Assembly (NCBI GenBank): GCA_965601735.1
Contig: OZ271840.1
Span: forward strand, 1,080,402 to 1,144,401
DNA length: 64,000 nucleotides
Direction of reading: 5' to 3'
From: Alphaproteobacteria bacterium
GTDB lineage: Bacteria > Pseudomonadota > Alphaproteobacteria > JBBDQX01
Below are positions 13,595-51,952 of the stretch, piece after piece (positions within the stretch are counted from its first letter, which is position 1; the number at the start of each line of letters is the position of its first letter). Below the pieces are notes generated by a model. That model saw only the letters and a list, made by a program, of their open reading frames with translations. It did no database searches and was not told the origin of the DNA. Both the position numbers and the translations under genes were made by a program.

Positions 13595-13771
13595 CTAGGC
13601 TCCCGCCGCGCCGGCGCGGCGCACCACCAGCCACAGGGCGTGGATCATCCCTGGCACGAAGAAGAATAGTGTGAGGAGGAGGTTGAGCCAGAAGTGCAGG
13701 CCCAGGCCAACGGTCAGGAAAGCAGCGACCGGCGGCAGGAAGATCGCAAGGATGATGCGCAGCAGGTTCAT
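13595..13771 (-). CDS. Pmp3/YqaE (UPF0057) family small membrane protein
   Basis: Not in the ORF track (58 aa). Translation MNLLRIILAIFLPPVAAFLTVGLGLHFWLNLLLTLFFFVPGMIHALWLVV... matches the Pmp3/YqaE proteolipid family. Coordinates are hand-counted. Confidence 0.55.
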   Translation of the reverse strand: MNLLRIILAIFLPPVAAFLTVGLGLHFWLNLLLTLFFFVPGMIHALWLVVRRAGAAGA

Positions 13772-13838
13772 GGTGGTGTCTCAAGACGGTTGTCTGACAG
13801 GGCCGCAGTCTAGCCGGGAACTGTCGCCGTGGGCCATG

Positions 13839-14282
13839 TCATTCGCCGCGGGGCCTGGGGCGCCAATCAGCTGGTGCCATCTCGAAGGCGTCAAAGCTGA
13901 AGGCCGGGGCCACGGTGCAGCCGCACAGGGTCCAAGCGCCCAACGACTCGGCGGTCTGCCAGTGCCCGGCTGGAACCACCGCCTGGGGCCGCTCGTCGCG
14001 CATCAGGTTGGGACCAAGCCGCCATGCGGTGGCATCGTCACCGTCCGGCGAGATGGTCAGCGCCAGCGGCGCGCCGCCGTACCAATGCCAGACCTCGTCA
14101 GCGTCGGTCACCCGGTGCCAGGCCGAGAGGTCGCCGGCCTCGAGCAAGTAGTAGATCGCGGTCGACGCACCGCGCGCGTCGCCGCCTGCTTTATGCCGGT
14201 AGGTTTCCCGATACCAGCCGCCCTCTGGGTGGCGGGTAAGGTCAAGCATCCGGACGATCGTACTGGCGTCCAAGTCGGTCAT
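13839..14282 (-). CDS. Cupin-domain protein (DUF985-like)
   Basis: 147 aa. RHPEGGWYRETYR...YYLL motif typical of the cupin_5/DUF985 family. Confidence 0.55.
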   Translation of the reverse strand: MTDLDASTIVRMLDLTRHPEGGWYRETYRHKAGGDARGASTAIYYLLEAGDLSAWHRVTDADEVWHWYGGAPLALTISPDGDDATAWRLGPNLMRDERPQAVVPAGHWQTAESLGAWTLCGCTVAPAFSFDAFEMAPADWRPRPRGE

Positions 14283-14369
14283 TGGCGCATTTCCCTATTC
14301 ACCGCTTGCGGCGGTCGCCGGACAATCACCGGCGCGATATAATACGACCGTTGCCAACACGAGGAGCTT

Positions 14370-14843
14370 GTGGCGAAGCACGATCTGCGGTCCCTGCGGG
14401 TTTTGATCGTCGATGACGATGCGGAGTCCCGCAAGCTGATGCTGGACTACCTGTCCGACATGGGCGTTAGCCAGGCCTATGAGGCGCCGGGCGGCGAAGA
14501 GGCGTTGGCGTTTCTCCAGTCCGCCCGGGTCGACCTTGTGATCTCCGATATCCGCATGTCGCCGATGAGCGGCGACGCCTTTGTGCGCGCGTTGCGCAGC
14601 GACGATGCCAACGCCAGCAAGCTGGTGCCGGTGATGATGGTCACCGAAGGACCTGACGCGACCAGCATTGAGGCAGCGAAGCGCGCCGGCGTCACTGCGC
14701 TGGTGGTAAAGTCATCGCGCTTCGAGGAATTCCACGGCCATGTGATCGGCACGCTGACACGCGCCGGCATCATTGCGCCCGACCGCGACGGGCTGAGCGC
14801 CATCGGTCCGGTCGATAACCCGGTGGGTAAATCCTGGGATTGA
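14370..14843 (+). CDS. Single-domain response regulator (CheY-like receiver)
   Basis: GTG start preceded by GAGGAG. Receiver signatures: acidic pocket DDD and phospho-acceptor D in VISDIRM. Confidence 0.7.
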   Translation: MAKHDLRSLRVLIVDDDAESRKLMLDYLSDMGVSQAYEAPGGEEALAFLQSARVDLVISDIRMSPMSGDAFVRALRSDDANASKLVPVMMVTEGPDATSIEAAKRAGVTALVVKSSRFEEFHGHVIGTLTRAGIIAPDRDGLSAIGPVDNPVGKSWD

Positions 14844-14856
14844 GGAGTCCGGCGGC

Positions 14857-16473
14857 CTACTGGCCACCGGCAGTCCAGAACGGTGGCGTTGCCGCGAAGG
14901 TGTGCCAGTCCTCGACCATCCGACGCTCCGACGCGGTGAGCTGGTGGCCGTACCAGCCAATCACCAGACCGGCGGCCCGCTCCAGTTCGGTTGCGGCCTT
15001 GCGGGGCTTGCGTACAGTGAGCGCGCTCAGCAGTTCCTCCGCCACGGCGACATCATTGAGTGCGCCCAGGTCCTCCTGCAGCGCCTCCAGCGCCATCAGG
15101 TAGGCGCGCGACCGGCGCTTCGGATAAAGGCCTCGGAAGAACTCGGTCGCGTAGCGCAGTTTCTTCACCGCGATCCGCAAGCGGTGACGGTCGGGCATCG
15201 ACAGATGCTCAAATCCCTTGCCAAGCCGCATCGCCCGCTTGTGGCGCTTACTGAGCAGCGCGCCGGCAAAGCGTTCCAGCGGCTGGTCAAGCGTGGCTGC
15301 CGCGGTCTCCTCGGCGCGCCAGCCGCGCGTCTCCATCCAGGCGCACAGCTTGAGCAGGAAGGTGGTGTATCGCGGCGCTGTGATGACCGCCCGTGCCTGG
15401 TCGTATCCGTCCGCTACGTTCGCTTCCGCCAGTGCCTTGAGCGCCTGGAGGCCCGCATCATCGCCGCGGTGATCGATGACTGGCGGCAGGGTTGTATTGA
15501 CGAATACGTCCCAGTCTCGCGCATTGCCGAGCCCTTGCGCGGCCCATCGCGCATCGTCGTTGAAGGCGCCGAAGTCGCCCGGCGTGATCACATCGCGGAA
15601 CAGCGCCAGTACCGAGCGGAAACGTCGCAGGCCAACGCGCATCTGGTGCACGCCTTCCGGGTCCCGCCCATCGAGCACGGCGGCCTCGTTGGCGGTCCAG
15701 TGGTCGAGGCAACTGCGCAGGGTCTGCTCCAGCGCTTGCTCCACGGTCGCGCTACGCCGCAGGGCCGGCTTGTCCGACTTGCGGCAGGGCGGAGGCGTGC
15801 CAGTCGCCAGCAGGTAGCCGCGGGCCGATTTGCTCAACGTCTCGACCCGCAGCGGGCTGACCGCGTGCAGATCCAGTGCCAGGTCGAAGAGCGCGCCCGG
15901 CCCACCACGCAGCAGCTCCAGTTCGACCTCGCATATCGGCGACTTGCCACGGGTGGTACGGATTTCGCCTTCGTCGAAACAGATTTCGACTACCCCGTCG
16001 GGATCCTGACTGTTCAGCACCTGTTTCTTGCGGCGCACGGTGCCGGTGAACACCCGTTTCAGGCTGTCCGCATCAATGCCGTCGAGCCAAGCCCGGGCAT
16101 GCGGATCAACGAACGCCGTGAGGTCGAGGGCGAATTTCGGCACCTCGACCTGCCATTCGCCACGGCGCTGTAACCCGCCTGCCGGCCCATCGCCGGACTT
16201 CAGGGTCTGCACATAACGCGGGCCTTCCTGGCGCACGCGCAGTGCCAGCCCGCGGGCGCGCAGGTCGAAGTTGGCGGTGTCGAAATAGGCATAGCGCAGG
16301 CGCTGCTCGACCCCATGCCCAACGGCACGACTGAGCAACGGCTCAGAGGTTGCCAGCGCCGCCAGCGCCTTCCTGTCCGCAGCGAGCTTGAGTTCAACTT
16401 CGAAGTTGTCTGGCGGCGTAAACTCGGGGGCTGCTTCCACCCCGGCGCTGCCGTCCGCAGGTCTGGTCCGCAA
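14857..16473 (-). CDS. CYTH (triphosphatase-like) plus CHAD domain protein
   Basis: 538 aa. N-terminal FEVELKLAA / EVELEL CYTH-type EXEXK strands, and a long alpha-helical CHAD C-terminal half with conserved His/Arg. Confidence 0.7.
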   Translation of the reverse strand: MRTRPADGSAGVEAAPEFTPPDNFEVELKLAADRKALAALATSEPLLSRAVGHGVEQRLRYAYFDTANFDLRARGLALRVRQEGPRYVQTLKSGDGPAGGLQRRGEWQVEVPKFALDLTAFVDPHARAWLDGIDADSLKRVFTGTVRRKKQVLNSQDPDGVVEICFDEGEIRTTRGKSPICEVELELLRGGPGALFDLALDLHAVSPLRVETLSKSARGYLLATGTPPPCRKSDKPALRRSATVEQALEQTLRSCLDHWTANEAAVLDGRDPEGVHQMRVGLRRFRSVLALFRDVITPGDFGAFNDDARWAAQGLGNARDWDVFVNTTLPPVIDHRGDDAGLQALKALAEANVADGYDQARAVITAPRYTTFLLKLCAWMETRGWRAEETAAATLDQPLERFAGALLSKRHKRAMRLGKGFEHLSMPDRHRLRIAVKKLRYATEFFRGLYPKRRSRAYLMALEALQEDLGALNDVAVAEELLSALTVRKPRKAATELERAAGLVIGWYGHQLTASERRMVEDWHTFAATPPFWTAGGQ

Positions 16474-16607
16474 GGTCAGCCCGTCTCCATCGTCACCCAG
16501 GCGCGCAACGCCAACAGCCTCTACCTCTTTTCGACAGGTTGAGTGCCTAGGCGTGTCGTCTGTCGACGACTATGGCATTCGATTGAGGGTAGAGCGAGTC
16601 CGGGATT

Positions 16608-17543
16608 CTATCCCGTGCGCACCCGGATGCAGCCTTGCGAACCGTCGCCGCGCTCGCGCTTCGCCTCGTACATCAACTCGTCGGCGGCCGCCATCAGCGA
16701 TGCTGCGTTGTCGCCATCCTCGGGGAAAAACACCACCCCGATCGAGGCGGTGACACGCAAGTCCTTGCCGCTGTAGGAAACCGGTTCGGCGATATCGTCG
16801 GCAAGCTTCGCGACCACCTTCATCGCACTGTCTCGCTGGTCGAAATTCTCCAGCAGGCATACGAACTCATCGCCGCCCACCCGGCCTACGGAGTCGGACC
16901 GCCGCACGCCGTGGGACAGGCGTTCGCCGATGGTGCGCAGCATACTATCGCCGGCATCATGGCCATGGGTGTCGTTGATCGGCTTGAAGCCGTTGAGGTC
17001 GATGAAGGCCAGGCAGAACGGCGCCTTGGAGCGGCGCGAACGCGCAATCGCCTGATCGAACAGGTTCATGAACAGCCGGCGGCTGGGCAGGCCGGTGAGG
17101 TCGTCGTAGAGCGCCGCCATCACCAGATGGTCCTGCAAGCGCTTCCGCTCCACCGCGTATCGCAGGGAGCGCTCCAATAGCGACGGGCCGATCTCGTCCT
17201 TTACCAGATAGCCAAAGGCGCCACGGCGCATAGCCTGCAGGTCGAGTTCGCGGCTGACCGATCCGGTCAGCAGGATCACCGGCACATCGATACCGCGCTC
17301 GACGAGCGACGCCATCACGTCGAAACCGGTCTCGGCGCCAAGGTCATGATCGAGCAGGCAGGCATCGAAGCCGTCCCTCTCAAACAGGGCGGTGGCTTCC
17401 TCGGGCGTCGCGGCGGTCTCGACCTCGAACGGCGCACCATCAATGCTATCGAGCATATCGCAGACCAGGCGCCGGTCCTCGCTGTCGTCGTCAAGCAGCA
17501 GAATCCGCAAGGTGCCGTCTACGGGCGGTACCTGCAACATCAT
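16608..17543 (-). CDS. Response regulator with GGDEF diguanylate cyclase output (PleD-like)
   Basis: REC domain (LLLDDD..., D in LLDHDL), then a GGDEF domain with GGDEF motif RVGGDEF and the upstream RxxD-like region. Confidence 0.8.
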   Translation of the reverse strand: MMLQVPPVDGTLRILLLDDDSEDRRLVCDMLDSIDGAPFEVETAATPEEATALFERDGFDACLLDHDLGAETGFDVMASLVERGIDVPVILLTGSVSRELDLQAMRRGAFGYLVKDEIGPSLLERSLRYAVERKRLQDHLVMAALYDDLTGLPSRRLFMNLFDQAIARSRRSKAPFCLAFIDLNGFKPINDTHGHDAGDSMLRTIGERLSHGVRRSDSVGRVGGDEFVCLLENFDQRDSAMKVVAKLADDIAEPVSYSGKDLRVTASIGVVFFPEDGDNAASLMAAADELMYEAKRERGDGSQGCIRVRTG

Positions 17544-18010
17544 GACGGGGGGAGCTCCGCGGTTTCCAGCCAGAAGGCGCGTAGCCGCGCCATGGCGTCG
17601 ACCAAGTCGCGATAACCGGAAGGCTTCGCAATATAGGAATTAGCGCCGAGGCCATAGCAGGTCCGGACATCTTCCTCAGAGTTCGAGGTGGAGACGACCA
17701 CTACCGGAATCTCGCGCAGGGTCGGGTCGGCTTTCATCGCGCTCAATGCATCGCGGCCATTCATCACCGGCATGTTGAGGTCCAACAGAACGATGTCGGG
17801 CCGAACCGCTGCCTCGTTGCCCGCATAGGGCCCTTGATTCTTGAGGTAATTCAATAGCTCACGGCCATCGCGGACGAATTGGATCGCGATCCGATCGTGG
17901 CTTTCATGGAGCGCATCGGCAATCAGCCGCCGATCATCCTCATCGTCGTCCGCTACCAAGAGGTAACGGACCGGCGGTTCATCCGCGGCCGTCTGCAATT
18001 CCCTCGTCAT
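17540..18010 (-). CDS. Single-domain response regulator (CheY-like)
   Basis: 156 aa receiver (LLVADDDEDD..., LLDLNMP, conserved K). ATGA-type overlaps with both neighbours. Confidence 0.75.
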   Translation of the reverse strand: MTRELQTAADEPPVRYLLVADDDEDDRRLIADALHESHDRIAIQFVRDGRELLNYLKNQGPYAGNEAAVRPDIVLLDLNMPVMNGRDALSAMKADPTLREIPVVVVSTSNSEEDVRTCYGLGANSYIAKPSGYRDLVDAMARLRAFWLETAELPPS

Positions 18011-20433
18011 GTCGCCTGTTCCACGCCCTCTTGGTCCCCGTCGCCCATGCCGTCGCCGTGCGAAACTGGAAGCTCAAACGCAAAAACCGTGCCGACGCCC
18101 GGCTCGGACTCTACTGAGATCGTGCCGCCGTGATGCTCAACGACGCGCTGCACGATGGCAAGCCCGATCCCGGTGCCCTCATACTCCTCACGGCCATGCA
18201 GACGCTGGAAGGGGCGGAACACCCGCTCCGCCATCGCGGGTTCGAATCCGATGCCATTATCGGCCACCGTGACCCGGCAATAGGCCTCTCCATCGCGGGT
18301 GACCGGTGCCAGGCTAATGGTGATCCGCGGCGGCGTGTCCGGGCGGCGGAATTTCAGAGCATTGCCGATCAGGTTCAGGAACAGCCGATGGATCAGCCCG
18401 GGCTCCGCATCGACGGTCCCGCAGCCGTCAACGGTGATCTCGCCGCCACTCTCCTGCAGCCGGTACTCCAGATCGGCCGCCACCCGGTTGACGCTCTCTC
18501 CAAGGTCGACAGGGCGGAAAGCAGTGTCTCCTTTGCCGATACGCGCATAGTTCAACAGACCGGTGATCAGGTCCTGCATCCTGGTCGCGGCGGCGGCCAT
18601 GCGGGTCACGTAATACTGGCCGTCCTCGTCCAAGGCATCGGCGTAACGCGTCTCTAGGCGTTCGCCGAAGGCGACAATCTTGCGTAGCGGCTCTTTTAGG
18701 TCGTGGGACGCGACATGGGCGAACTCTTCCAGATCCCGATTGGAGCGTTCGAGCTCTGCCGATTGCTGGGCCAGCAAATCCGCCGCCTCTTCCGCCCGGC
18801 GGCGGGCCTCCGACAGCTCGGCCTCGCGCTCCTTCAGGGCACTGATATCGGTGCGAACCGCGACGATGCCTCCCTCGGTGGTGCGCCGTTCGGTGCCCAG
18901 CACCCAGCGGCCATCCGGCAGCTTCCACTCGAACCGACGGCCCGCCCCGGTGGCGAACTCCTGCAGCCGGGTGCGGACATACGCGTCAATATCTCGATCC
19001 GCGATGTTCGGATTGATCTGCAGGGCCGTGCGGATGACGACCTCGAAGCTCTGCCCTGGCTTCAGCAGATGGGCCACATGCTTGTTGAAGTCCCGATACT
19101 TGTCGTTGCACAGGATCAGCCGGCCGCCCCGGTCCCATAGCACGAAGCCCTCGTCGATATTCTCGATCGCGTCGGTCAGGCGCTGCTCGGCGCGCTTCAG
19201 GGCGGTGATGTCGGAGCGGATACCAACGATGCCACCATCGCGGGTCCGCCATTCGCGGATCAGGATGGTGCGGCCATCGTTCCAGTGCTGGATGATCGGC
19301 TCACCGGTCGGGTTGAGGTGTGCCTCCAGACGCTGGCGCAGCCAGGACTCCGGGTCGGTCCGTTGCAGCGGATCGTCGACCACCCGGTTCTCTAGTCCGA
19401 GCCGGATCAGGTCCTCGAATGTCTTGCCCGCCAGCTCCGAGCGCGGCGGCAAATAGGGATACAATTCCCGGTACCGTTCGTTGCACAGCACCAGCCGGTC
19501 TTCCTTGTCGTAGAGGATGAAGGCGTCGCTGATGCCGTCAATGGAATCGACGAGTTGCTGCTGGGCGACACGGGCGGCGTTGGCCGCCGCCTCCCGGCGC
19601 GCCTCCGCTGCGACCTGCTCGGTCAGGTCGCGGCCGATTCCGCGATAGCCGATGAAGGTGCCGTCTGCGTCGAACAACGCCCGGCCGCTGTTGGTCATGG
19701 TCAGCGGGCGGCCGTCGGCATGCCAGTTGGTGTAGATGAAATCGTCGAAGTCCTCGCGCGCATCCAGCGCGGCGAAGAAGGCTTCCCACCGGGGCTGCTC
19801 CTCGATGAGGGTACCCTTGTACATGTCGCGGCGGGTCTTGCCGACCAGCCGGTCGACCGGCTTGCCTGTGATCTCGGTGTAGCGCGGCGACAGGTATGTG
19901 TAGCGCAGGTCGGCATCCATCTCCCAAAGCCAATCCGAGCCGAGCTCCGCGAAGTCCTGGAACCGGGACTGGCTGTCATGCAGGGCGAGTTCACTGCGCT
20001 TGCGCGCGGATATGTCGGTTACCGCGACCGCGATCGCGGGCTCACCTTCCCAGACCGTCGCATGGACGTTGTAGGCAGCCCAGAACAGGCTGCCGTCGCG
20101 GTGCTGGGCGGCGAGTTCGTAGCGTTCAGGGGCCGCCTGGCCCGCCCGGCGCTGGTTGGCATAGCCGCGCACCCGAGCGCGCTCGTGCGGCGCCGCACAA
20201 GTTTCCGTCACGTCCAAGCCGAGCAGCTCATCCGTCCGATCGAATCCGAAAAGCGCCGCTGCTGCTCTGTTGGCGTAGCGTATCTTGTCGTCGCGGGTGA
20301 TCAGCACCCCGACCCGCAAATCATCGACCAGGGTGTGGAAGGATGCGTCGATTGCCCCGTCCCGGAGTATGGAGTCCGTCACTGGACGCCTCCCGCCCCC
20401 ACCCTCACGGACCCGCAGCGCGGCGCGCGGCAA
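18007..20433 (-). CDS. Multi-PAS sensor histidine kinase
   Basis: 808 aa. Several PAS/PAC repeats, HisKA H-box (AHVASHDLKEPLRK), HATPase_c N/G boxes (NALKF, GTGIGLAIV). No receiver domain. Confidence 0.8.
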   Translation of the reverse strand: MPRAALRVREGGGGRRPVTDSILRDGAIDASFHTLVDDLRVGVLITRDDKIRYANRAAAALFGFDRTDELLGLDVTETCAAPHERARVRGYANQRRAGQAAPERYELAAQHRDGSLFWAAYNVHATVWEGEPAIAVAVTDISARKRSELALHDSQSRFQDFAELGSDWLWEMDADLRYTYLSPRYTEITGKPVDRLVGKTRRDMYKGTLIEEQPRWEAFFAALDAREDFDDFIYTNWHADGRPLTMTNSGRALFDADGTFIGYRGIGRDLTEQVAAEARREAAANAARVAQQQLVDSIDGISDAFILYDKEDRLVLCNERYRELYPYLPPRSELAGKTFEDLIRLGLENRVVDDPLQRTDPESWLRQRLEAHLNPTGEPIIQHWNDGRTILIREWRTRDGGIVGIRSDITALKRAEQRLTDAIENIDEGFVLWDRGGRLILCNDKYRDFNKHVAHLLKPGQSFEVVIRTALQINPNIADRDIDAYVRTRLQEFATGAGRRFEWKLPDGRWVLGTERRTTEGGIVAVRTDISALKEREAELSEARRRAEEAADLLAQQSAELERSNRDLEEFAHVASHDLKEPLRKIVAFGERLETRYADALDEDGQYYVTRMAAAATRMQDLITGLLNYARIGKGDTAFRPVDLGESVNRVAADLEYRLQESGGEITVDGCGTVDAEPGLIHRLFLNLIGNALKFRRPDTPPRITISLAPVTRDGEAYCRVTVADNGIGFEPAMAERVFRPFQRLHGREEYEGTGIGLAIVQRVVEHHGGTISVESEPGVGTVFAFELPVSHGDGMGDGDQEGVEQAT

Positions 20434-21631
20434 CCCGGCGCGGCACCAGTGAATTGGTGCCGACGCGCGCCATCACCGGATCGTCGCTCCGGCCGCACAC
20501 GTCGCTCAGCGCGAACAGCACCCGGCCCAGAACCGTTTCGTCCCACATCCAGTCGTCGACCCGCCTGCCTGTGGCGCTGCCCGGCTGGGCGGTGACTGCT
20601 TCCTGGTAGAACGCCTTGAGGTCGTCGGTAGCCAGCTTGAGGCTGCGCGCGAGCGGCTGGTCCGGAATCGGGTTGTCCGGTGTTTCGCCGTCGAGAAAGG
20701 CCGTGACAAACCCCGGCAATGCCGACGGTTGCAGGCCGCTCAGCCCGAAGGTCGTGCGCCCACGCCCGCGCTGGGCGAGTTCATACCATGGTGCCAGGCG
20801 GCCGACCTCTTCCTCCAGGGCCGCGCGATAACCGCCACCCGCATCGATGTCTACCGGCGGCGGCTTGAGGTCGACCGGACAGACCATCGCCTCCGCGGCG
20901 TCGGTGTCAGCTGGCGCTTCCTCTGGGAAATCCTCCAGCACCGGCCCTTCGTTCGCGGACAACAAGGCGAAGGTCGCATCCAGCACCTTGCGCTGGAAAG
21001 AGATGTCGTTCGGTGCGCCGAGCGGGCGGCCCAACTCAAACGGCACCCAAAGGGCGCGCGGCGGGCGCACCTTTTCCGTGTGCAGCCGGATCAGGCTGAT
21101 GCCGGTCGTGGCCAGGCCTTCGCGTTCCAGATAATGCGCAAGCGCGCCCACGGCGCGCGTGCACATCGGTCATATCGGTACCAGCAACACCACATCGACC
21201 GCATCGCGTTTGAGCAGAGCGGCGATCTCCTGCGCCGCCAGCTCCAGCTTCTCCGGTGGGGTGCCGCCATAGAAAGTGTAGTGAAAATCTCCCACTGAAC
21301 CGATGGTGCCCTCGGCCGCCATCTCCTTTAGCCGGTCGAGCGGGAAGGCAATGTTGATGTCCTGCTGGAAGCCAGTTCGGTCGAAGTTGACCGAGGAGTG
21401 GCTCATTACCAGGTCGTCGGGCGCCACATCGCTGGGGATCACCCGATAGTCCGTGGCGCCGCTGTAGAAGGCCGCTTCGCCGCGCCGCTGCAGGGCGGCC
21501 GTGCTGACGATGGCGACTCGCGCATCCGACAGCGCAGGTGGGGCGGCCCACGGCGTGGTGTCGAAAGTCGGGCACTCGGTGTTCTCGAAGTAGGCGCGCT
21601 CAGCCCCCTCGAAATCGCTCAGACGCGCCAT
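20405..21631 (-). CDS. Candidate selenoprotein of the GrdB/PrdB-like reductase family: one reading frame with an in-frame TGA (putative Sec) at 21170-21172
   Basis: Track ORFs 21170..21856 and 20405..21166 are in the same frame, separated only by TGA plus CCG. The junction reads ...VDVVLLVPI-[TGA]-PMCTRAVGALAHYLEREGLATTGISL..., a UxxC motif. A 15-bp stem AUGUGCACGCGCGCC-GUG-GGCGCGCUUGCGCAU starts 3 nt after the UGA. Start trimmed to M76 (MARLSDFEG...) with SD AAAGGAA. Total 408 aa, with U at about residue 154. Confidence 0.5.
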
Positions 21632-21848
21632 GACGGTTCCTTTCGGGCGCTGCGGTGATGCGCCGCACAGCATACACATCGGCACGCCGCCCGGAAGGCC
21701 AAGAACCGGTAACGCTTTCTTAAGCATGGCGGCGGCATGCTCTGCAGCCTGTGTTAGTCCGGCCACGGAATCGGCCGGGCAATGTTGGAGGATTTCTTCG
21801 GGGGCCGGTGTGGCATGAGGCCAAGCCCGGACCAGGAGTGGTGAGCCG

Positions 21849-23291
21849 ATGAGCATCGATCAGTATTTGCCGCGCATCTCGCGCCATCATCACCAGGGCC
21901 GGCTCTACGGCCGCGAGCCCGAATTGCTGGCCGTACCGGTGCGCGAGGCCGCCAAGGAAGGCCTCGCCCAGTTGGACGCCGGCGACATCTATGCCGCGGA
22001 GTTCCATTTCCGGCGTGCGCTGACCGGCAACGGCGAGGATGCCGAGGCTCTGTGCGGCCTGGCGCTATCGCTCTATCAGCAGGCGCGCTGGGGCGAGGCG
22101 GAGGGCCTGTTGCGCCAGGCGCTCGGCCTGCGGCCCGAATGGCGCAAGGCACAGGCCGCGTTGGCGGAAGTGCTGTTACAGCTTGGGCGTTATGGCGAGG
22201 CCATCGGCGAGTTTCGCGACCTGGTTCGCGCCTTGCCGGAGAACCCCTATCTGCGCAAACGCTTCAACCGGGTACGGCTGCGCTACGAGCAGATCGAGAC
22301 GGCCCGGCGATCAATCCGCATCGACGACAACCCCAACCCGCTATGGGGTGAGACCCGGCGCGGCCAGGCGATCAGCCTGGCGCCGAACCCAGTTATCCGA
22401 CCCGACAGCAACATCTTCACCATCGGCAGCTGCTTTGCCGTGGAGGTGCGCCACGAACTGGCGCGGCGCGGCTTTGCGATGTATCCGCGCTACGACACCC
22501 TCAAGATCGATCCGGCGCGCCAGAAGATCAACGCCCTGCCGGACAAGCTCAACCTCAACTACTACGACACCTTCACCATCCGTCAGGAGATCGAGCACGC
22601 GGTGGAGGGCCGCCGTTACGGCCTGGAAGATTTCTGGCGAATCAGCGGAAGACCGATCAACAGCCTGTTCCGCCAGGCCACCGTGTTTCAGGATCCCTAT
22701 CGCAAGAACGTCTATGGCCGTGATGAGGCGGCGATCCTCAGCGCCAGCGCTCAGCTCTCGGACGTTATGGCCGACGGTGTCGCGTCATCGGATGTCTTCG
22801 TCATCACGCTCGGACTGACAGAAGCCTGGCAGAACCTAGCCAACGGCCTGTATGTTGCCGGCCCGCCAGGTGGCAAGACCGGCGGCGCAGGCCTGTGCCG
22901 GCTGCGGCTCAGCAGCTTTGCCGACAACTACGCCAACCTGAAGCGGACCCTCGACATGCTGTTCGCGGCCAACGCCCAGCGCGACGTGCTGCTGACGGTG
23001 TCGCCGGTGGCGTTGCACCGCACCTTCTCTGATCAGGACGTGATCGTCGCGAACATGGAGAGCAAGTCGATCCTGCGCGCCGTCGCTGGGCAGCTTGCCC
23101 GGGAGTATCCGCGCGCCCACTACATGCCGACTTACGAACTGTTCGCCCGCCACGACCTGTTTCACGAGGACGGGCGGCACGCCTCGCGCGACGGTGTGGC
23201 GGTGGTGTTCGATACCCTGCTTAGCGCCTTCATGGAGCCGAGCGTCGAGCGGGCCGACCTGCGCGAGATGATCCGAGAGCACGCCGCCTGA
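21849..23291 (+). CDS. TPR-repeat plus GSCFA-domain protein
   Basis: 480 aa. N-terminal TPR-like repeats, then the GSCFA family motif IFTIGSCFAVEV and downstream conserved blocks. Confidence 0.65.
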   Translation: MSIDQYLPRISRHHHQGRLYGREPELLAVPVREAAKEGLAQLDAGDIYAAEFHFRRALTGNGEDAEALCGLALSLYQQARWGEAEGLLRQALGLRPEWRKAQAALAEVLLQLGRYGEAIGEFRDLVRALPENPYLRKRFNRVRLRYEQIETARRSIRIDDNPNPLWGETRRGQAISLAPNPVIRPDSNIFTIGSCFAVEVRHELARRGFAMYPRYDTLKIDPARQKINALPDKLNLNYYDTFTIRQEIEHAVEGRRYGLEDFWRISGRPINSLFRQATVFQDPYRKNVYGRDEAAILSASAQLSDVMADGVASSDVFVITLGLTEAWQNLANGLYVAGPPGGKTGGAGLCRLRLSSFADNYANLKRTLDMLFAANAQRDVLLTVSPVALHRTFSDQDVIVANMESKSILRAVAGQLAREYPRAHYMPTYELFARHDLFHEDGRHASRDGVAVVFDTLLSAFMEPSVERADLREMIREHAA

Positions 23292-23301
23292 GGTAGATGC
23301 C

Positions 23302-24075
23302 CTAGGCGTCAGCCGCAGGCAGTCCGGCACGCGCCCGCAGGGATGGATCGCGGATCGATAGCTCCTGTCCGGCGAGGTCGGCGGCCTCTTCGCTGCAAAG
23401 CCATGCTACCGCGCGGCCCGGCTGCCAGGCCGGGGCGAGGTTCTCGCGCGGAATCTGGCTGACCCGGTTTATTCCTGACGCCCGGATCTGGACCTGCATG
23501 TCGGTGTCGACCGTACCGGGCCCGAAGCCGTACACGCGGATGCCCTGCGTGCCGTATTCCAGCGCCGTGGCGCGGGTCAGCATGGCGACCCCCGCCTTGG
23601 CGCTGCAATAGGCGGCCCAGCCTTCCAGCGGGTTGTGCGCGGCGCCGGAACTGATGTTGACGATCACCCCGCCGCCCGCGGCCTGCATCCGGGGCAGCAC
23701 GGCATGGATGCCGTGATAGACCCCCAGCAGGTTGACCGCGATGTTGTTCGCCCAGGCGGCTGGATCGGAATCCGCCAGTGCCCCGATCGGTTCGACCATG
23801 CCGGCGTTGTTGATCAGGATGTCGGGCCCGCCCAGGCGCTCCGCAGTCTCGGCGATCAGACCGGCGACCTGGTCCGGGTCGGACACGTCACAGGCCATCG
23901 CCTCCGCAGTACCGCCCGCGGCGCGGATCTCATCGGCGTTCCCGGCGCAGGCTTCCACCGAGCGTGCCGCCAGAACCACCGCCGCTCCGGCGGCCGCCAG
24001 TTCTGTCGCCACCGCCTGGCCGATGCCGCGGCTTGCCCCGGTCACGATCGCTGTCTTGCCTGCCAGTGCTGTCAT
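23302..24075 (-). CDS. SDR-family short-chain dehydrogenase/reductase
   Basis: TGASRGIG Rossmann motif, NNAG, and catalytic S...YxxxK (YCSAKAG). Confidence 0.75.
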   Translation of the reverse strand: MTALAGKTAIVTGASRGIGQAVATELAAAGAAVVLAARSVEACAGNADEIRAAGGTAEAMACDVSDPDQVAGLIAETAERLGGPDILINNAGMVEPIGALADSDPAAWANNIAVNLLGVYHGIHAVLPRMQAAGGGVIVNISSGAAHNPLEGWAAYCSAKAGVAMLTRATALEYGTQGIRVYGFGPGTVDTDMQVQIRASGINRVSQIPRENLAPAWQPGRAVAWLCSEEAADLAGQELSIRDPSLRARAGLPAADA

Positions 24076-26800: not shown

Positions 26801-27030
26801 CTAGATGCTTCGGCAGAACGGCAACATGTGGTGGCTTATACATTCGCCCCCACGACATATCGGTCACCGCTCCGTGAATTTTTTCTTGTGGGATCGCGGC
26901 GGTTTTGTTGCCGCGGGTCCGCTTGCAAGCACTCCGGCGAAGGCGGACAATAGATGGATTGCGCGCCGCCTTTGCCGCATCGGCAGAGGCGCGCGCATGT
27001 GTGTCTTTAGCCGCGGCAGGGTCGGACCGG

Positions 27031-28725
27031 ATGTCCACCGTTTCCAGCGCGAACCCGGATCAGCAGGTACACGCTGCGCAGCAGCAGCGTGACCGGTTCC
27101 TGGCGTTTGCGTTCGCCGCGGCCGATGTGCTGATCGAGACCAACGACAAAGGCCACATCCAGTATTGCGCCGGTGCTACCGAGAACCTGTTCGGTGAGCC
27201 GGTTGAGACCCTGGTTGGGATGACGCTGGCCACCTCGGTCGCCGAGGAAGACAAGGTGATGCTCGACGCGGCGATGGCGCGGCTGCGCGCTACCGGTCGG
27301 ATCGAGCGCCTGAGCATTGCCATCAATCATAAGACCGGCGGTCAGACGGTGACCGAACTCAACGGCATTATGCTGCCGCAGCGTCCCGGCATTTGCAGCT
27401 TGGTACTGCGGTTCGCCCGCTCCGCCGGCGGCGCGCAGCATCGCCACGTTCCGGCCGCAGGTGCCCTGACCAAGGACAGCTTCATCGAACTGGCCAAAGG
27501 CCGGCTCGCCGAGGGGGCGGCGCGGGGCGAGGATTACCGCCTCACCATGCTCGATCTGGAGAGTGAGGAATTCTACGAGCGACTCGGCACCGAGGGGGCC
27601 GAGCAGTTCGCCGACGACATCGAGGGACAGCTGCGGGCCTGGTCGGTAGCCGGCGCCTCGGTCGGCCGGCTCGCCACCGGCCCGACGGGCGAGGTCACGC
27701 GCTACGGTGTCATCCACGACGGCACCGTAGCTGCCGAGCAGCTCGAGGAACGCATCAACACCCTTGCCGCCGAGGCCGATCCGTCGGGCGAGGGGCTGGC
27801 GGTACAGAGCAACAGCGTCAGCTTCGAGGGCGGTGAGCTGAGTCCGGAGGAGATGGTCCAGGCGGTGGCTTACACCATCAACAAGTTCGCCGCGGAGGGT
27901 GGCTCCGATTCCGGCTTCGGCACCTTGGCCGACGGCTACAAGGCGATGCTCGACGACACCATCGCGCGGGTGCGAAAGTTCCGCACACTGACCGAGTCGG
28001 ATCAGTTCAGCTTCGTGTTCCAGCCGGTGGTCTCGCTACGCGAGTGGAAGGTGCACCACTTCGAGGTGCTGTCGCGCTTCGAGAAAGACGACTCCGGCGC
28101 TTCGCCTTACGACACCCTGGTGTTCGCCGAGGATATCGGCCTGGTCAGCGAGTTCGACCTAGCGGTACTCCGCAAGGCCATCGGTCTGTTGCAACAGGAC
28201 GACTTTCCCGCCGATACCTCTATTGCGGTGAACCTGTCGGGCCGCTCGCTGCTGAACCAGCGGTTCGTCTCCGAGTTGCTGTCCCTGCTGGCGCAGAATC
28301 GCGGCCTCAACAAGCTGCTGATGTTTGAGATCACCGAGTCCTTCGAGATCAAGGACCTGTCCAGTGCCAACAAGCTGCTGCAGGAGATCCGCAAGCAGGG
28401 CTTCACCGTTTGCCTCGACGATTTCGGCGCCGGGGCGGCGGCGTTCCAGTATCTGCGCAACCTGCAGATCGACTTCGTGAAGATCGACGGCAGCTACTTG
28501 CACGACGCCTTCGCCTCGCCCTTCGGCAAGTCATTCCTGCGCGCCATCGCCAACCTGTGCGCCGACCTCAAGCTCAGGACCATCGGCGAGATGGTCGAGG
28601 ACCAGCTGGCGCTCGACCTGCTCACCCAGATCGGTGTCGATATGGGTCAAGGCTATTTCCTCGGCGCGCCCCAGCCTACCGCGGACCCGGTGACCCTGCC
28701 GGCCCGCGCCAAGACCCGGCGCTGA
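27031..28725 (+). CDS. EAL-domain c-di-GMP phosphodiesterase with N-terminal sensory region
   Basis: Track ORF trimmed to M43. EAL signature residues present: EITES, DDFGAG, KIDGSY, and the E...Q loop. Predicted catalytically competent. Confidence 0.7.
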   Translation: MSTVSSANPDQQVHAAQQQRDRFLAFAFAAADVLIETNDKGHIQYCAGATENLFGEPVETLVGMTLATSVAEEDKVMLDAAMARLRATGRIERLSIAINHKTGGQTVTELNGIMLPQRPGICSLVLRFARSAGGAQHRHVPAAGALTKDSFIELAKGRLAEGAARGEDYRLTMLDLESEEFYERLGTEGAEQFADDIEGQLRAWSVAGASVGRLATGPTGEVTRYGVIHDGTVAAEQLEERINTLAAEADPSGEGLAVQSNSVSFEGGELSPEEMVQAVAYTINKFAAEGGSDSGFGTLADGYKAMLDDTIARVRKFRTLTESDQFSFVFQPVVSLREWKVHHFEVLSRFEKDDSGASPYDTLVFAEDIGLVSEFDLAVLRKAIGLLQQDDFPADTSIAVNLSGRSLLNQRFVSELLSLLAQNRGLNKLLMFEITESFEIKDLSSANKLLQEIRKQGFTVCLDDFGAGAAAFQYLRNLQIDFVKIDGSYLHDAFASPFGKSFLRAIANLCADLKLRTIGEMVEDQLALDLLTQIGVDMGQGYFLGAPQPTADPVTLPARAKTRR

Positions 28726-41052: not shown

Positions 41053-41754
41053 ATGAAGACCGGTAAACCAAAGCCTTTCGCCGCCCGCCTCGCGGCACGC
41101 GCCGTACGCAGCCGATATGGGCGGCGCGCGCGCGCTGTCAACGCTGCCCTGCTGCTGTTTCTGGCGCTGGTGCTTGCTGCGCCGGCTGAGGCGGGGACTC
41201 GCCTCGTCGTACTGGGTGACAGCCTGGTCGCGGGTTACGGCCTACCCAATAGCGAGTCCTTCCCCGCGGCGCTGGGCCGCGCGCTGGCCGAACGGGGTCG
41301 TGATGTCGCGGTCCGTAATGCCGGCGTTTCCGGCGAGACCAGCGCAGGTTTGCGCGCCCGGCTCGGCTGGGCGCTGTCGGAGCCGGCGGACGCAGCGATC
41401 GTCGTAATCGGCGGCAACGATGCGCTGCGCGCCCTCGATCCTGGTCAGATGCGCGCCAACATCGACGCGGTACTCGAGGGCCTCAAGGGACGGGGTATTC
41501 CGGTGCTGCTGGCCGGCATGCTGGCGCCGCCGAACCTGGGGCGTGAGTACGGTACCGCCTTCAACACGGCCTTCGCCGATTTGGGCAAGGAAAAGGCCAC
41601 CGTCTTCTACCCCTTCTTCCTTGAAGGGGTGGCGGCGATACCGGCGCTCAACCAGGCCGATGGCATCCATCCCAACGCCGAGGGGGTGGATGAGATCGTC
41701 AGCCGAATCCTGCCGGACGTGGAGCGTCTGCTCGCCGCAACTGGCGGCGGATGA
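41053..41754 (+). CDS. tesA: SGNH/GDSL hydrolase, TesA-like (acyl-CoA thioesterase I / lysophospholipase L1)
   Basis: Signal peptide, then a GDSLVAGYG block. Conserved G (AGVSGET), GGND, and a DGIHP catalytic block. Divergent from the ybbA/ybbP-like pair, as in E. coli tesA-ybbA-ybbP. Confidence 0.7.
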   Translation: MKTGKPKPFAARLAARAVRSRYGRRARAVNAALLLFLALVLAAPAEAGTRLVVLGDSLVAGYGLPNSESFPAALGRALAERGRDVAVRNAGVSGETSAGLRARLGWALSEPADAAIVVIGGNDALRALDPGQMRANIDAVLEGLKGRGIPVLLAGMLAPPNLGREYGTAFNTAFADLGKEKATVFYPFFLEGVAAIPALNQADGIHPNAEGVDEIVSRILPDVERLLAATGGG

Positions 41755-43391
41755 CTCGCCCGCCCTCGCTCTCCGGCCCGGTCCTCGAGCAGGCACTGGC
41801 CCAGGCGACGGCCGACCTCGGCGCCGGGCGCGCCGACGCGGCGCGCGAGCTGCTTGCCCAATTGCGCCGTGCCGCGCCAGATGCCGCCCGGGTACATTTC
41901 CTCTCTGGGCTGGCGGCCGTCGGCGCTGGTGACCCAAGCGAGGCCGCGAACCATTTCCGCGCCGCCCTTGACCGCGACCCTGACGATGCCACCGCACGCG
42001 GCTGGCTTGCCCAGGCGCTCTTGGAAACCGGCCACGATGCGGGCGCCGCTCCGCTGGTCGATGGCATCGGTACCGACGCCCCGCTGCCGCTCGCCATGGC
42101 AAGGGCCCAGTGGCTGCTGCGCCACAGCCGCCTCAAAGAAGCCGCGGGCCTATTGGATGAAACCGCCAGCCGCTTCCCCGAGCAGGCAACGGTCCAAGCG
42201 TTGCTGGCGGAAACACTGGAACGCCAAAACCAGCTCGCGGAAGCCGAGGTGGCGGCAACGGCTGCGCTCGCGCTGTCGCCGGGCGACCTTTCCGCGGTCA
42301 CCAAACTCGCCCGTATCGAGCGGCGCACCGAACGAGCCGCCGCCGCGCGCGCCCGGCTGACGGACGTGCTTGCCACCCATGCCGGCACACCGCCGGGCGC
42401 GCGCGGGGCGGCGCTGGTCGAACTTGGATTTGCTGCCGACCGGGACGGCGATGCAGATGCAGCCTTTGCCGCCTTCGTCGAAGGGCAGGCGCTGCTGGCG
42501 CGTACGCCTGAGGCGGCGGGCGCTGATCCCGAAGCGGTGTTCCGGCTGATCGAGGCACTCGCGGCGGTGCCGATGCCGCCAGCTGCTGCGCCGGATCCGG
42601 ACACGCCGGTCTTCCTGGTGGGCTTCCCGCGCTCGGGCACGACGCTGACCGAGCAGTTGCTGGCCGCGCATCCGCGCCTAATCACCACCGACGAGCAGCC
42701 TTTTCTGCCCGACCTGTTTGCCGACTGGCCGGCGCTCACAGGCGGGCCCTATCCGCATCGTCTCTCCGACCTCGATGCCGCGGCCTGTGAAAGCCTGCGT
42801 GGCCGCTACCGTAATGCACTACACAGTCATTTCGGCGCCGCACTCGACGGTCGCCGTGCCGTCGATAAGCTGCCGCTCAACCTGCTGCATCTTCCATTGG
42901 TGCGCCGGCTTTTCCCCGGAGCGCCCGTGATCCTCGCGCTGCGCGACCCGCGCGATGTCGTGCTGAGTTGCCTGATGCAGCAGTTCGCGCCCAACGCCGC
43001 GATGGCGCCGTTCTTTGCGCTGGACAGCACCGCGCGGTTCTATGCCGCCGCCATGGACCTGTGGCGCGGCTGGCGCGACGCTATGGATCCACCGGTGCTG
43101 GAATCGCGCTATGAGGATGTGGTGGCGGACGTGGAAGCCGCGGCGAGGCGGCTGATCACCCATGTCGGAGAGGCCTGGTCGCCCGCCGTGCTGGATTATG
43201 CCGAGGCTGCCCAGGCGCGCGCGATTTCGACGCCCAGCTACCGGGATGTGACTGGGCCGATCCATCAACGCGCGAGCGGCCGCTGGCGGCGCTATGAGAA
43301 ACATCTTGCACCGGTGCTGGGAATCCTTGATCCGTACGTCCGGGCGTTCGGCTACGCGCCAGCGTCCGAGACCGGGGGAGGGGAGCGATGA
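41751..43391 (+). CDS. TPR-repeat protein with C-terminal sulfotransferase domain
   Basis: 546 aa. N-terminal TPR-like helices. C-terminal Sulfotransfer-type 5'-PSB motif FLVGFPRSGTTL and 3'-PB-like RDPRDVVLSCL. ATGA overlap with the tesA-like stop. Confidence 0.6.
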   Translation: MTRPPSLSGPVLEQALAQATADLGAGRADAARELLAQLRRAAPDAARVHFLSGLAAVGAGDPSEAANHFRAALDRDPDDATARGWLAQALLETGHDAGAAPLVDGIGTDAPLPLAMARAQWLLRHSRLKEAAGLLDETASRFPEQATVQALLAETLERQNQLAEAEVAATAALALSPGDLSAVTKLARIERRTERAAAARARLTDVLATHAGTPPGARGAALVELGFAADRDGDADAAFAAFVEGQALLARTPEAAGADPEAVFRLIEALAAVPMPPAAAPDPDTPVFLVGFPRSGTTLTEQLLAAHPRLITTDEQPFLPDLFADWPALTGGPYPHRLSDLDAAACESLRGRYRNALHSHFGAALDGRRAVDKLPLNLLHLPLVRRLFPGAPVILALRDPRDVVLSCLMQQFAPNAAMAPFFALDSTARFYAAAMDLWRGWRDAMDPPVLESRYEDVVADVEAAARRLITHVGEAWSPAVLDYAEAAQARAISTPSYRDVTGPIHQRASGRWRRYEKHLAPVLGILDPYVRAFGYAPASETGGGER

Positions 43392-44509
43392 CCGGGTCAT
43401 TCGCCGCCGGCGCAGCCGGCGGCTCGCAGGAGTGGCAGACCGTCTGTGCCGCGGCGCTCGACGACCTCGGCGAACCGCCCGAGGGCGCCAACCTTGGCTT
43501 CCTCTATGTCACCGATGTGCTGGCCCATGCGATGCCGAGCATCATCGACATGGTGCGCGAACAGACTGGCATCGCCGAATGGACGGGCACGATTGGCATG
43601 GGCGTCTGCGCCGCCGGGCAGGAGTTCCACGATGAGCCCGCCATCGCGATGCTGGTCTGCGCCCTGCCCGAGGATTCCTTCCGCCTGCTGCCCACCGTAA
43701 CCGGCCCGTTGAAACGGGTGCTGGACTGGCATGGTGGCTGGTTTGCCGACAACCAGCCGGTGTTCGGAGTCGTCCATGGCGACCCGACATTCGCCGGCGT
43801 GCCCGACGTGGTCGAGACCCTGGCCGAGGTCAGCGGCGGATTCCTGGTTGGCGGCCTGACCGCATCGCGCGGCGAGAACTTTCAGCTTGCCGGCGGGCTT
43901 ACCAGCGGCGGTGTATCCGGCGTCGTGCTTGGCCCGTCGGTGCCGGTCGCAACCGGGCTCAGCCAGGGCTGTATGCCCATCGGCGATGTGCACGAGGTGA
44001 CCGAGGGCGCCGACAACATCATTGTATCGCTCGATGGTGAGCCGGCGCTCGATGTGTTCAAGCGCGAGATCGGCGACATCCTGTCACGCCAGCTCGAACG
44101 CACCATGGGCTATATCCACGCCGCCTTTCCCGTCTCCGGTGACGACACAGGCGACTACCTGGTGCGCAACATCCTGGGTGTGGACTCCGAGCGCGGCTGG
44201 CTGGCGGTCGGAGAAATGGTCGGCACTGGCGACCGGGTAATGTTCTGCCGCCGGGATGCCCAAGCGGCGCGCGACGATATGGCGCGGATGCTCACCGGGT
44301 TGGAGCGGCGGCTCGACCGGGCGCCCCAGGCGGCGCTGTATTTCTCTTGTGTCGCGCGGGGTCCCAACATGTTCGGCGAGAAGGGCAGCGAACTGGCGAT
44401 CTTGCGCGATGCGCTGGGCGACATCCCGCTCGCCGGCTTCTACGCCAACGGCGAGATCTCCAATAACCGCCTGTACGGATATACCGGGGTGCTGGCGCTG
44501 TTCCTGTGA
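43388..44509 (+). CDS. FIST-domain signal-transduction protein (FIST_N plus FIST_C)
   Basis: 373 aa. Conserved FIST_C end ...AGFYANGEISNNRLYGYTGVLALF. ATGA overlap with the sulfotransferase gene. Confidence 0.65.
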   Translation: MTGSFAAGAAGGSQEWQTVCAAALDDLGEPPEGANLGFLYVTDVLAHAMPSIIDMVREQTGIAEWTGTIGMGVCAAGQEFHDEPAIAMLVCALPEDSFRLLPTVTGPLKRVLDWHGGWFADNQPVFGVVHGDPTFAGVPDVVETLAEVSGGFLVGGLTASRGENFQLAGGLTSGGVSGVVLGPSVPVATGLSQGCMPIGDVHEVTEGADNIIVSLDGEPALDVFKREIGDILSRQLERTMGYIHAAFPVSGDDTGDYLVRNILGVDSERGWLAVGEMVGTGDRVMFCRRDAQAARDDMARMLTGLERRLDRAPQAALYFSCVARGPNMFGEKGSELAILRDALGDIPLAGFYANGEISNNRLYGYTGVLALFL

Positions 44510-49176: not shown

Positions 49177-49188
49177 CCGGCCGCCCGC

Positions 49189-51874: not shown

Positions 51875-51952
51875 AGGCTGCTGTCTCGGCGGGGCAAATT
51901 AGGTTGCGCTGCATCATTGTGGTACGCACCGTCGCAGCGCACAACGCAGGCG

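Follow-up and report, generated by a model that had tools for sequence, protein, structure and literature searches.

A UxxC selenoprotein gene beside a PAS kinase and diguanylate cyclase module in an alphaproteobacterium: probably two neighbouring units

Introduction

In the DivK-PleD system of Caulobacter, a gene for a single-domain receiver is followed by a gene for a receiver-GGDEF cyclase, with PAS kinases feeding the pair, and PleD itself carries two receiver domains (REC-REC-GGDEF). Among selenoproteins, the described relatives closest to the one discussed here are PrdB of D-proline reductase, the GrdB group, and a UxxC "PrdB" family whose members are abundant in marine metagenomes (PMC1088965, PMC2398784).

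Searching the literature for operons that join a selenoprotein, a diguanylate cyclase and a histidine kinase, we found nothing relevant. Here we analyse such a set of neighbouring genes in a 64-kb stretch of DNA, referred to as the window. Its host is an alphaproteobacterium, as the initial annotation had it, and the nearest named relative is an Acetobacterales MAG. The open reading frames and domains first described for the locus (histidine kinase, single-domain receiver, REC-GGDEF protein and GrdB/PrdB-like gene) were recovered in the ORF list and in Pfam and NCBIfam matches; the limits of the kinase gene and the proposed connection between the genes are reconsidered below.

Selenoprotein gene and family

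The selenoprotein gene (20405-21631, minus strand) comprises 408 codons in translation, selenocysteine 154 (Sec154) included. It encodes an N-terminal PrdB-like domain at approximately residues 14-224 and a family-specific C-terminal domain of about 180 residues (approximately 225-408), which is helical and contains a conserved Cys. Membership holds at the level of the GrdB/PrdB superfamily, where the match to Pfam GRDB (PF07355; residues 14-151) reaches 35.2 bits against a gathering cut-off of 22. The NCBIfam PrdB model (TIGR04483) gives 96.5 bits where its cut-off is 300, which falls short of an equivalog, and TIGR01918 scores 44.3 bits against 65.45, which falls short of the subfamily and covers only model positions 207-398 of a full-length architecture of about 430 residues. 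A PDB sequence search returned chance matches only and no solved structural relative. A Cys homolog, P0006 (48% identical), was modelled in place of the selenoprotein and gave a predicted structure with a pLDDT of 85.9.

A Pfam scan of the 46 ORFs in the window found no prdA and no grdA, grdC, grdD or grdE, and PrdA and other prd genes were likewise not found beside homologs of the selenoprotein in other lineages. Going by its sequence, the protein does not qualify as a true PrdB or GrdB, and the label "Stickland reductase" overstates its kinship because the scores lie far below the PrdB and GrdB cut-offs, the C-terminal domain is additional, and the window holds no gene for PrdA or GrdA/C/D/E. 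Motif, domain and habitat suggest that it belongs to the UxxC "PrdB" family of the marine selenoproteome surveys, and by analogy with PrdB and GrdB it is most likely a reductase that uses selenol/thiol chemistry on a small metabolite.

More than 3000 homologs exist, most of them annotated as post-UGA fragments of about 250 residues. In public gene calls the gene appears as two separate "hypothetical" ORFs, here as in thousands of homologs, and the present reading corrects that annotation. It also suggests that the "PrdB-like" UxxC proteins, a widespread family, are not Stickland reductases, that they possess a previously unrecognised C-terminal domain, and that their gene contexts are variable and mostly metabolic.

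Selenocysteine codon and SECIS element

The in-frame UGA read as selenocysteine lies at 21170-21172 (minus strand), within the motif VPI-U-PMC. At the Sec154 site, TGA is present in 76 of 77 homologous gene copies, and the 76 copies so split span the Alpha-, Beta- and Deltaproteobacteria together with other phyla; the one further copy, L078 (Falsiroseomonas), has TGC (Cys). Full-length homologs (P0006-P0020) align a Cys at the same site, and the U-x-x-C motif is conserved there across the homologous copies. Judged by this conservation, the TGA genuinely encodes selenocysteine.

RNA folding and pair counts point to a SECIS-like hairpin at 21134-21166 (minus strand), whose upper stem (GCGCGCC/GGCGCGC, 21158-21142) starts 11 nt past the UGA and bears the apical loop GUG. 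Across 46 distinct sequences the upper stem is conserved and the lower stem is clade-specific, the G and U of the loop never vary, and the pair between positions 22 and 36 occurs as CG (28), UA (11) or GC (2). None of 500 shuffles reached the observed covariation score, for which coding constraint is a partial confounder, the covariation being that of the first base of an Arg/Cys codon with a synonymous Ala third base. An Rfam scan of the region returned no annotated RNA; to our knowledge, no Rfam model matches SECIS elements of this bacterial type at the gathering threshold.

Kinase, receiver and cyclase genes

The kinase gene (18007-20382, minus strand; public gene call P0124) encodes a predicted cytoplasmic sensor histidine kinase of 791 aa. 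Four PAS-type domains (PAS/PAS_9, PAS_4 and two PAS_7) precede HisKA (2.2e-9) and HATPase_c (3.6e-27) in the Pfam matches and, together with the H-box SHDLKEPL, these last two assign the protein to the HisKA-type two-component kinases. Inspection of the PAS domains revealed no signature of cofactor binding. The only ortholog is P0125 (75% identical), the next best match being 35-36% identical.

The initial annotation had the GrdB/PrdB-like gene end inside or abutting a kinase of 808 aa starting at 20433. The most likely start, judged from sequence, is GTG 20382, which is also the start in the public call, rather than TTG 20433, which merely opens the longest ORF. A Shine-Dalgarno sequence, GGGAGG (20389-20394), precedes the in-frame GTG, leaving a spacer of 22 nt (20383-20404, minus strand) after the selenoprotein stop. 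The check by conservation that had been proposed for the kinase start agrees with GTG 20382: two relatives, L073 and L024, have the equivalent start, an identical 22-nt gap and a GGAGGA ribosome-binding site. Fixing the start here is an annotation correction, and it means that the selenoprotein gene would abut the kinase gene without overlap, so that the pair is not translationally coupled in the strict sense.

Downstream lie genes for a single-domain response regulator of 156 aa (REC; 17540-18010, minus strand; Pfam Response_reg 2.7e-20), whose translation shows the canonical DD...D...T/S...K residues, and for a REC-GGDEF diguanylate cyclase of 311 aa (16608-17543, minus strand; Pfam GGDEF 1.6e-44, Response_reg 1.7e-15). 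In the cyclase the GGDEF motif is intact, with an RxxD I-site (RRSD) five residues before it, and the receiver shows a DD...D...T...K pattern; these are the motifs expected of an active REC-GGDEF protein. The cyclase is not a PleD equivalog, scoring 133.4 bits on NF007135 against a cut-off of 474 and having one REC only. One hairpin resembling a terminator (16752-16731) falls within the REC-GGDEF coding sequence and was not counted as a terminator.

Both 4-nt overlaps reported earlier are present as ATGA, kinase/REC at 18010-18007 and REC/REC-GGDEF at 17543-17540, and support translational coupling of these three genes as far as sequence can indicate. Of the four-gene translationally coupled unit that had been proposed, this part therefore stands, and the selenoprotein-kinase junction, with its 22-nt gap, does not. 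Co-transcription of all four genes is nevertheless plausible on sequence grounds, since they are co-directional, the gap is 22 nt, and a terminator scan found no terminator-like site between the selenoprotein and kinase genes. A sigma-70-type promoter scan of 14000-23500 returned zero sites, a result that is uninformative for a GC-rich alphaproteobacterium and compatible with an internal promoter.

On the upstream side, a TPR and GSCFA-family gene (21849-23291, plus strand; Pfam) is divergent from the selenoprotein gene, with which it has a 217-bp intergenic region in common, and is syntenic in L023, L024 and L073. On the other side, ORFs and Pfam matches bear out the CYTH-CHAD protein gene (14857-16473, minus strand) placed initially 134 bp downstream of the REC-GGDEF gene and convergent with an orphan single-domain receiver (14370-14843, plus strand), itself conserved in L023. 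The 134-bp gap contains no T-rich terminator.

Gene neighbourhood

The selenoprotein-kinase neighbourhood occurs only in the relatives L073, L024 and L023, where the selenoprotein is 75-86% identical and the whole local synteny is retained, from TPR-GSCFA to CYTH-CHAD. A deletion inside the fourth PAS domain has removed the kinase core, REC and REC-GGDEF from L023, which leaves an intact ORF for a truncated PAS protein of 434 aa (64% identical to the sensor region of the kinase) with CYTH-CHAD directly 3' of it; the selenoprotein gene there is intact and keeps its TGA and SECIS element. Among the close relatives that are informative (L023, L024, L073 and L026, the last partial), all four have a PAS-encoding gene immediately after the selenoprotein gene, a point against regarding the two as separate units. 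The intact 434-aa ORF of L023 is another, as it could mean that the PAS protein and the selenoprotein have been retained jointly for a reason.

The distant set comprised 70 gene copies (41-59% identical), 42 of which have 1.5 kb or more of DNA on the downstream side. None of the 70 has an adjacent kinase or receiver gene, and the fetched DNA contained no GGDEF gene anywhere; the same holds for the 22 genome loci and 44 metagenome loci at 41-58% identity, the 70 copies taking in L074-L078 as well. Across lineages, no gene family recurs beside the selenoprotein at more than 4 of 23 loci. In the nearest outgroups (54-58% identical, full length) the selenoprotein gene lies in an operon ordered DAO, CoA-transferase III, selenoprotein, 2-hydroxyacid dehydrogenase, with an ABC transporter beside it. 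Missing neighbourhood conservation had been named initially as evidence that would tell against a joint system, and this is largely what was observed: the adjacency is restricted to syntenic close relatives, and the selenoprotein-PAS kinase-c-di-GMP neighbourhood does not recur in independent lineages, being found in L073 and L024 and partially in L023 and L026.

Discussion

We consider it probable that the locus consists of two ordinary units side by side, reflecting local gene order and not a conserved selenoprotein-to-c-di-GMP pathway. In the first, UGA154 would be decoded as selenocysteine with help from the SECIS hairpin just downstream, giving a stand-alone UxxC selenoprotein outside any Stickland reductase complex. 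In the second, going by domain content and intact motifs, the four-PAS kinase would autophosphorylate on an intracellular cue and pass its phosphate to the single-domain receiver, probably a phosphate sink or modulator, and to the REC-GGDEF protein, which would dimerise, make c-di-GMP and be feedback-inhibited via its RxxD I-site. The four genes probably form one transcript, from the promoter region common to them and the divergent TPR-GSCFA gene, and they seem to have come together a single time, in one Acetobacterales-related lineage. Since the kinase has no ortholog outside the clade, other genomes offer no demonstration that the signalling module is independent.

UxxC selenoproteins are redox-active, and PAS domains frequently sense redox state or small ligands. 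The selenoprotein might thus signal redox state or turn a substrate into a PAS ligand, serving the kinase as an auxiliary sensor or as the source of its signal and setting c-di-GMP output. Such true coupling would sit well with co-directional genes, a conserved 22-nt gap, the lack of a terminator, and a selenoprotein-PAS adjacency kept in L073, L024, L026 and even L023, where the PAS part alone survives. We regard it as unlikely, however. Every supporting genome has the whole neighbourhood in common, so that recent common descent explains the conservation of the selenoprotein-kinase pair; the adjacency is seen in 0 of 70 distant copies; in L023 the selenoprotein has outlasted the kinase core and cyclase; and inspection gave the PAS domains no cofactor-binding signature. 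The idea that redox or substrate sensing feeds c-di-GMP signalling retains a real selenoprotein and plausible co-transcription, and is undercut by the absence of neighbourhood recurrence and by the loss in L023; functional coupling from selenoprotein to c-di-GMP is weakly supported. If true, it would be the first link of a selenoprotein, or of selenium availability, to c-di-GMP signalling.

It is quite unlikely that, in this Acetobacterales-related clade, the selenoprotein was recruited as the first gene of a PAS-kinase/receiver/cyclase operon, with c-di-GMP depending on its partnership with the PAS domains as a redox or metabolite sensor, or on polarity governed by selenium-dependent UGA read-through. 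Were this so, biofilm and motility signalling would be linked to the selenium or redox status of the cell.

In bacteria, premature termination of translation is well known to bring about Rho-dependent polarity. Failed Sec insertion, for example when selenium is scarce, could leave about 760 nt of untranslated mRNA and lead to Rho-dependent termination, and the c-di-GMP module would then be expressed in step with selenium status. The geometry would permit this, as the selenoprotein stop comes 765 nt downstream of the UGA, with the 22-nt gap beyond, and there is no independent evidence of a promoter ahead of the kinase gene. We nonetheless hold it to be very unlikely: the argument is purely inferential, nothing in the sequence specifically supports selenium polarity, the arrangement is limited to one clade, and a promoter internal to the operon may exist, the sigma-70 scan being uninformative for alphaproteobacterial promoters.

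That the TGA is instead a true stop, in a pseudogene or between two genes (153 and 253 aa) with no selenoprotein at all, is scarcely credible and was rejected on conservation, for although public gene calls show separate 153-aa and 253-aa ORFs and tRNA-Sec, selA, selB and selD genes are absent from the 64-kb window, the split falls at the identical codon, always TGA, in 76 copies across several phyla, Cys homologs continue through the position, the UxxC motif and SECIS hairpin are conserved, and the first ATG past the TGA is one codon on in the same frame.

Comparison with known systems

The signalling half of the locus resembles DivK-PleD of Caulobacter in that a single-domain REC gene precedes a REC-GGDEF gene under a PAS histidine kinase. 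It differs in that the kinase gene here belongs to the operon itself, and there is no evidence here of a cell-cycle role. In its one-REC architecture, the cyclase is closer to the WspR-type REC-GGDEF proteins.

With GrdB/GrdF/GrdH (TIGR01917, TIGR01918), the selenoprotein has in common the C-terminal Sec-containing domain (model positions approximately 207-400) and the UxxC motif, whereas the N-terminal half of GrdB is absent from it and no grdA, grdC, grdD or grdE lies nearby. PrdB of D-proline reductase (Clostridium sticklandii, C. difficile; TIGR04483) is homologous over residues 33-224 of the selenoprotein, corresponding to model positions 26-218 of 238, and likewise carries its selenocysteine in a UxxC motif (PMC13188914). 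However, PrdB is about 240 aa long, compared with 408 aa and an extra helical C-terminal domain here; the window around the selenoprotein lacks the PrdA pyruvoyl proprotein, PrdC, PrdD and PrdE; and the hosts of PrdB are Stickland fermenters, while the present host is an alphaproteobacterium and probably aerobic.

The closest counterpart is perhaps the UxxC "PrdB" family of the marine surveys, which was labelled there by homology only, without function, partner subunits or gene context (Zhang, Fomenko & Gladyshev 2005; Zhang & Gladyshev 2008). Like the selenoprotein described here, that family combines a Pfam GRDB domain with Sec in UxxC and a few Cys homologs (PMC1088965, PMC2398784), and its members abound in Proteobacteria and in metagenomes from marine and other environments, just as many of the homologs found here come from Tara and other marine assemblies.

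Gene organization and conservation of the neighborhood

Four genes lie in the same direction on the minus strand within 16608-21631 of the window. They encode the selenoprotein (20405-21631; a 408-codon frame with one internal TGA at 21170-21172, matching Pfam GRDB), a soluble histidine kinase (most likely start GTG 20382) that combines four PAS-type domains with HisKA and HATPase_c, a single-domain receiver (REC; 17540-18010) and a REC-GGDEF protein (16608-17543). A TPR-GSCFA gene, identified with Pfam, is the divergent upstream neighbor of the selenoprotein gene, while a CYTH-CHAD gene (14857-16473, minus strand) follows 134 bp downstream of the REC-GGDEF gene and converges on an orphan receiver gene (14370-14843, plus strand). 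Our re-derived ORFs and family matches agree with the initial annotation in the coordinates and domains of the four genes and in the placement of the convergent pair; both 4-nt overlaps that it reported, kinase with receiver and receiver with cyclase, read ATGA.

Other features of the window were also noted. A 223-aa ORF without a family match (13671-14342, plus strand) overlaps an opposite-strand Cupin_5 gene (13839-14282) and is probably a spurious high-GC ORF. A TPR-sulfotransferase gene and a FIST-domain (putative sensor) gene overlap by 4 nt at 41751-44509 (plus strand), and five consecutive EamA-family transporter genes occupy 48256-53742 (minus strand), with one small opposite-strand ORF between (51144-51563).

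The neighborhood is common to three close relatives. L073 (selenoprotein 86% identical) carries TPR-GSCFA, selenoprotein, kinase, REC and REC-GGDEF genes; L024 (also 86%) carries the first three, where its contig ends; and L023, an Acetobacterales MAG (75%), carries TPR-GSCFA and selenoprotein genes, a 434-aa PAS protein, CYTH-CHAD and the orphan REC. This PAS protein (L023 6388-7692) is an intact ORF that shares 64% identity with the window kinase, corresponds to its residues 11-417 and breaks off within the fourth PAS domain, where a short novel tail (...WDADECMALSPASPVLLR) ends it. The kinase core, receiver and cyclase have been removed by deletion, leaving the CYTH-CHAD/orphan-receiver pair directly after the truncated gene; the selenoprotein gene retains its TGA and SECIS, and the selenoprotein persists there without the signaling output. 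For the kinase we found one ortholog only (75% identical), the next-best match being 35-36% identical. The single-domain receiver ortholog of L073 (12385-12851) is frameshifted into ORFs of 81 and 74 aa, through either assembly error or decay.

Among 22 genome and 44 metagenome loci with selenoproteins 41-58% identical, there were no GGDEF genes and no kinase or receiver gene adjoining the selenoprotein gene; the few kinase or receiver matches lay 2.5-5 kb away on the upstream side. Together with L074-L078 these loci supplied 70 distant gene copies, 42 of which extended 1.5 kb or more downstream of the gene. Across 23 loci, no neighbor family was shared by more than 4, and the neighbors sampled comprised TetR, CMD, amidase, TctC, ABC transporters and isoprenoid genes. 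In the nearest outgroups (54-58% identical over the full length), the gene is part of a compact operon of DAO, CoA-transferase family III, selenoprotein and 2-hydroxyacid dehydrogenase genes, next to a Bmp-type ABC transporter (L074 2958-7733; L075; L076; L077 4295-7730; DAO in L074 and L075 only); this context is a clue to the family's metabolic substrate. The Falsiroseomonas Cys form (L078) adjoins a peptide-type ABC transporter.

Since the adjacency of selenoprotein and signaling genes is confined to syntenic close relatives and absent from distant loci, it most probably goes back to one event in a single lineage. The initial interpretation, a selenoprotein feeding c-di-GMP signaling, is only partly supported: the selenoprotein is real, but the lack of neighborhood conservation that the initial annotation named as a refutation is essentially what we observe. 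True functional coupling, whose one point of support is the selenoprotein-PAS adjacency kept in the syntenic relatives (the truncated L023 ORF included), is unlikely.

Kinase start and transcript structure

The selenoprotein gene had been described as ending inside, or abutting, the first codons of a kinase that starts at 20433 or a nearby alternative. The TTG at 20433 only gives the ORF its greatest possible length. GTG 20382, in the same frame, has GGGAGG upstream at a suitable distance and yields the 791 aa of the public gene call (P0124); L073 and L024 begin their kinases at the equivalent site, after a 22-nt gap that holds GGAGGA as ribosome-binding site, and the DNA ahead of the GTG does not show conservation as kinase coding sequence. 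The two genes therefore do not overlap, but lie 22 nt apart with a ribosome-binding site inside the gap. The proposal of one translationally coupled four-gene unit consequently holds for the kinase, receiver and cyclase genes, to which strict coupling is limited, and fails at the first junction. A terminator scan found no terminator-like structure between the selenoprotein and kinase genes, which likely share a transcript probably headed by the former. This geometry would permit selenium-dependent polarity to control the signaling genes, but the notion is entirely speculative and we regard it as very improbable. A terminator-like hairpin and T-run (16731-16752, minus strand) within the REC-GGDEF coding region, ~120 nt ahead of its stop, is probably a chance match.

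The TGA codon

TGA occupied the equivalent codon, within P-[VI]-U-P-x-C-[TS], in 76 of 77 homologous copies collected from genome and metagenome contigs, the exception being Falsiroseomonas selenitidurans (L078) with TGC. Most database proteins of the family are ~250-aa fragments that start immediately past the TGA, and the smaller group consists of full-length Cys forms (403-427 aa). A SECIS-like hairpin (21158-21142; upper stem GCGCGCC/GGCGCGC, apical loop GUG) begins 11 nt past the UGA. Across 46 distinct sequences its upper stem is conserved, G and U of the loop never vary, and pair 22-36 alternates (C-G 28, U-A 11, G-C 2); this pair joins position 1 of an Arg/Cys codon to the synonymous position 3 of an Ala codon. 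None of 500 shuffles reached the observed covariation score, for which coding constraint is a partial confounder; covariation at a synonymous site argues for constraint at the RNA level. The conserved TGA, the Cys forms and the hairpin uphold the selenoprotein reading: judged by sequence comparison, 21170-21172 is a selenocysteine codon. A genuine stop or a pseudogene, which runs counter to the conservation data, is highly improbable. ORF and RNA scans detected no Sec-insertion genes within the 64-kb window. One locus (L009 6124-7323 and 7401-8312) holds two selenoprotein gene copies in tandem, each with TGA at the Sec position.

Family assignment, proposed mechanism and known systems

The selenoprotein matches Pfam GRDB at 35.2 bits (cut-off 22), and its best NCBIfam match, the D-proline reductase PrdB model, scores 96.5 bits, far under the equivalog cut-off of 300; the GrdB subfamily cut-off is likewise not reached. 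PrdB/GrdB homology is confined to residues of about 14-224. Residues of about 225-408 (20405-21166) match no Pfam model but are well conserved across the family, with a near-invariant Cys (C251, motif CP[VI]) and a PPRALWVPFELGRPLG block. An AlphaFold2 model of a full-length Cys homolog (P0006, 48% identical; pLDDT 85.9, pTM 0.83) places an all-helical domain after a Rossmann-like alpha/beta domain, and returned no specific PDB match. Neither the window nor the surroundings of the homologs examined contained prdA, grdA, grdC, grdD or grdE. Marine surveys counted UxxC 'proline reductase PrdB' selenoproteins among the most abundant selenoproteins of the sea, with 42 genes in Sargasso Sea data and 235 in GOS (PMC1088965, PMC2398784), and the window family matches these in motif, domain and habitat. 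Given the partial homology, low scores, absent partners and this match, the protein is no Stickland reductase but belongs to an already known family of predicted selenoproteins.

The protein, translated through UGA154 via SelB and the SECIS element, is most probably a metabolite-directed selenol/thiol reductase. The signaling genes would form a standard phosphorelay, in which the PAS-sensing kinase phosphorylates both the single-domain receiver, whose canonical acidic pocket, Asp, Ser/Thr and Lys residues are present, and the REC-GGDEF cyclase. The cyclase retains GGDEF intact and carries RxxD as an I-site five residues before it, so it should be activated by phosphorylation and inhibited by its product. 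The sequence data themselves show the domains, motifs, overlaps, Sec codon and SECIS element, and it is the phosphotransfer partners, the enzymatic role and the shared transcript that are inferences. A 606-aa EAL-domain protein, a putative c-di-GMP phosphodiesterase ~5 kb from this cluster (26905-28725, plus strand) and at the same relative position in L073 (4293-5987), could be its degradative counterpart.

Every component belongs to an already known kind. As in Caulobacter divK-pleD, a receiver gene is followed by a cyclase gene, and the cyclase shares the one-receiver-domain architecture of WspR.
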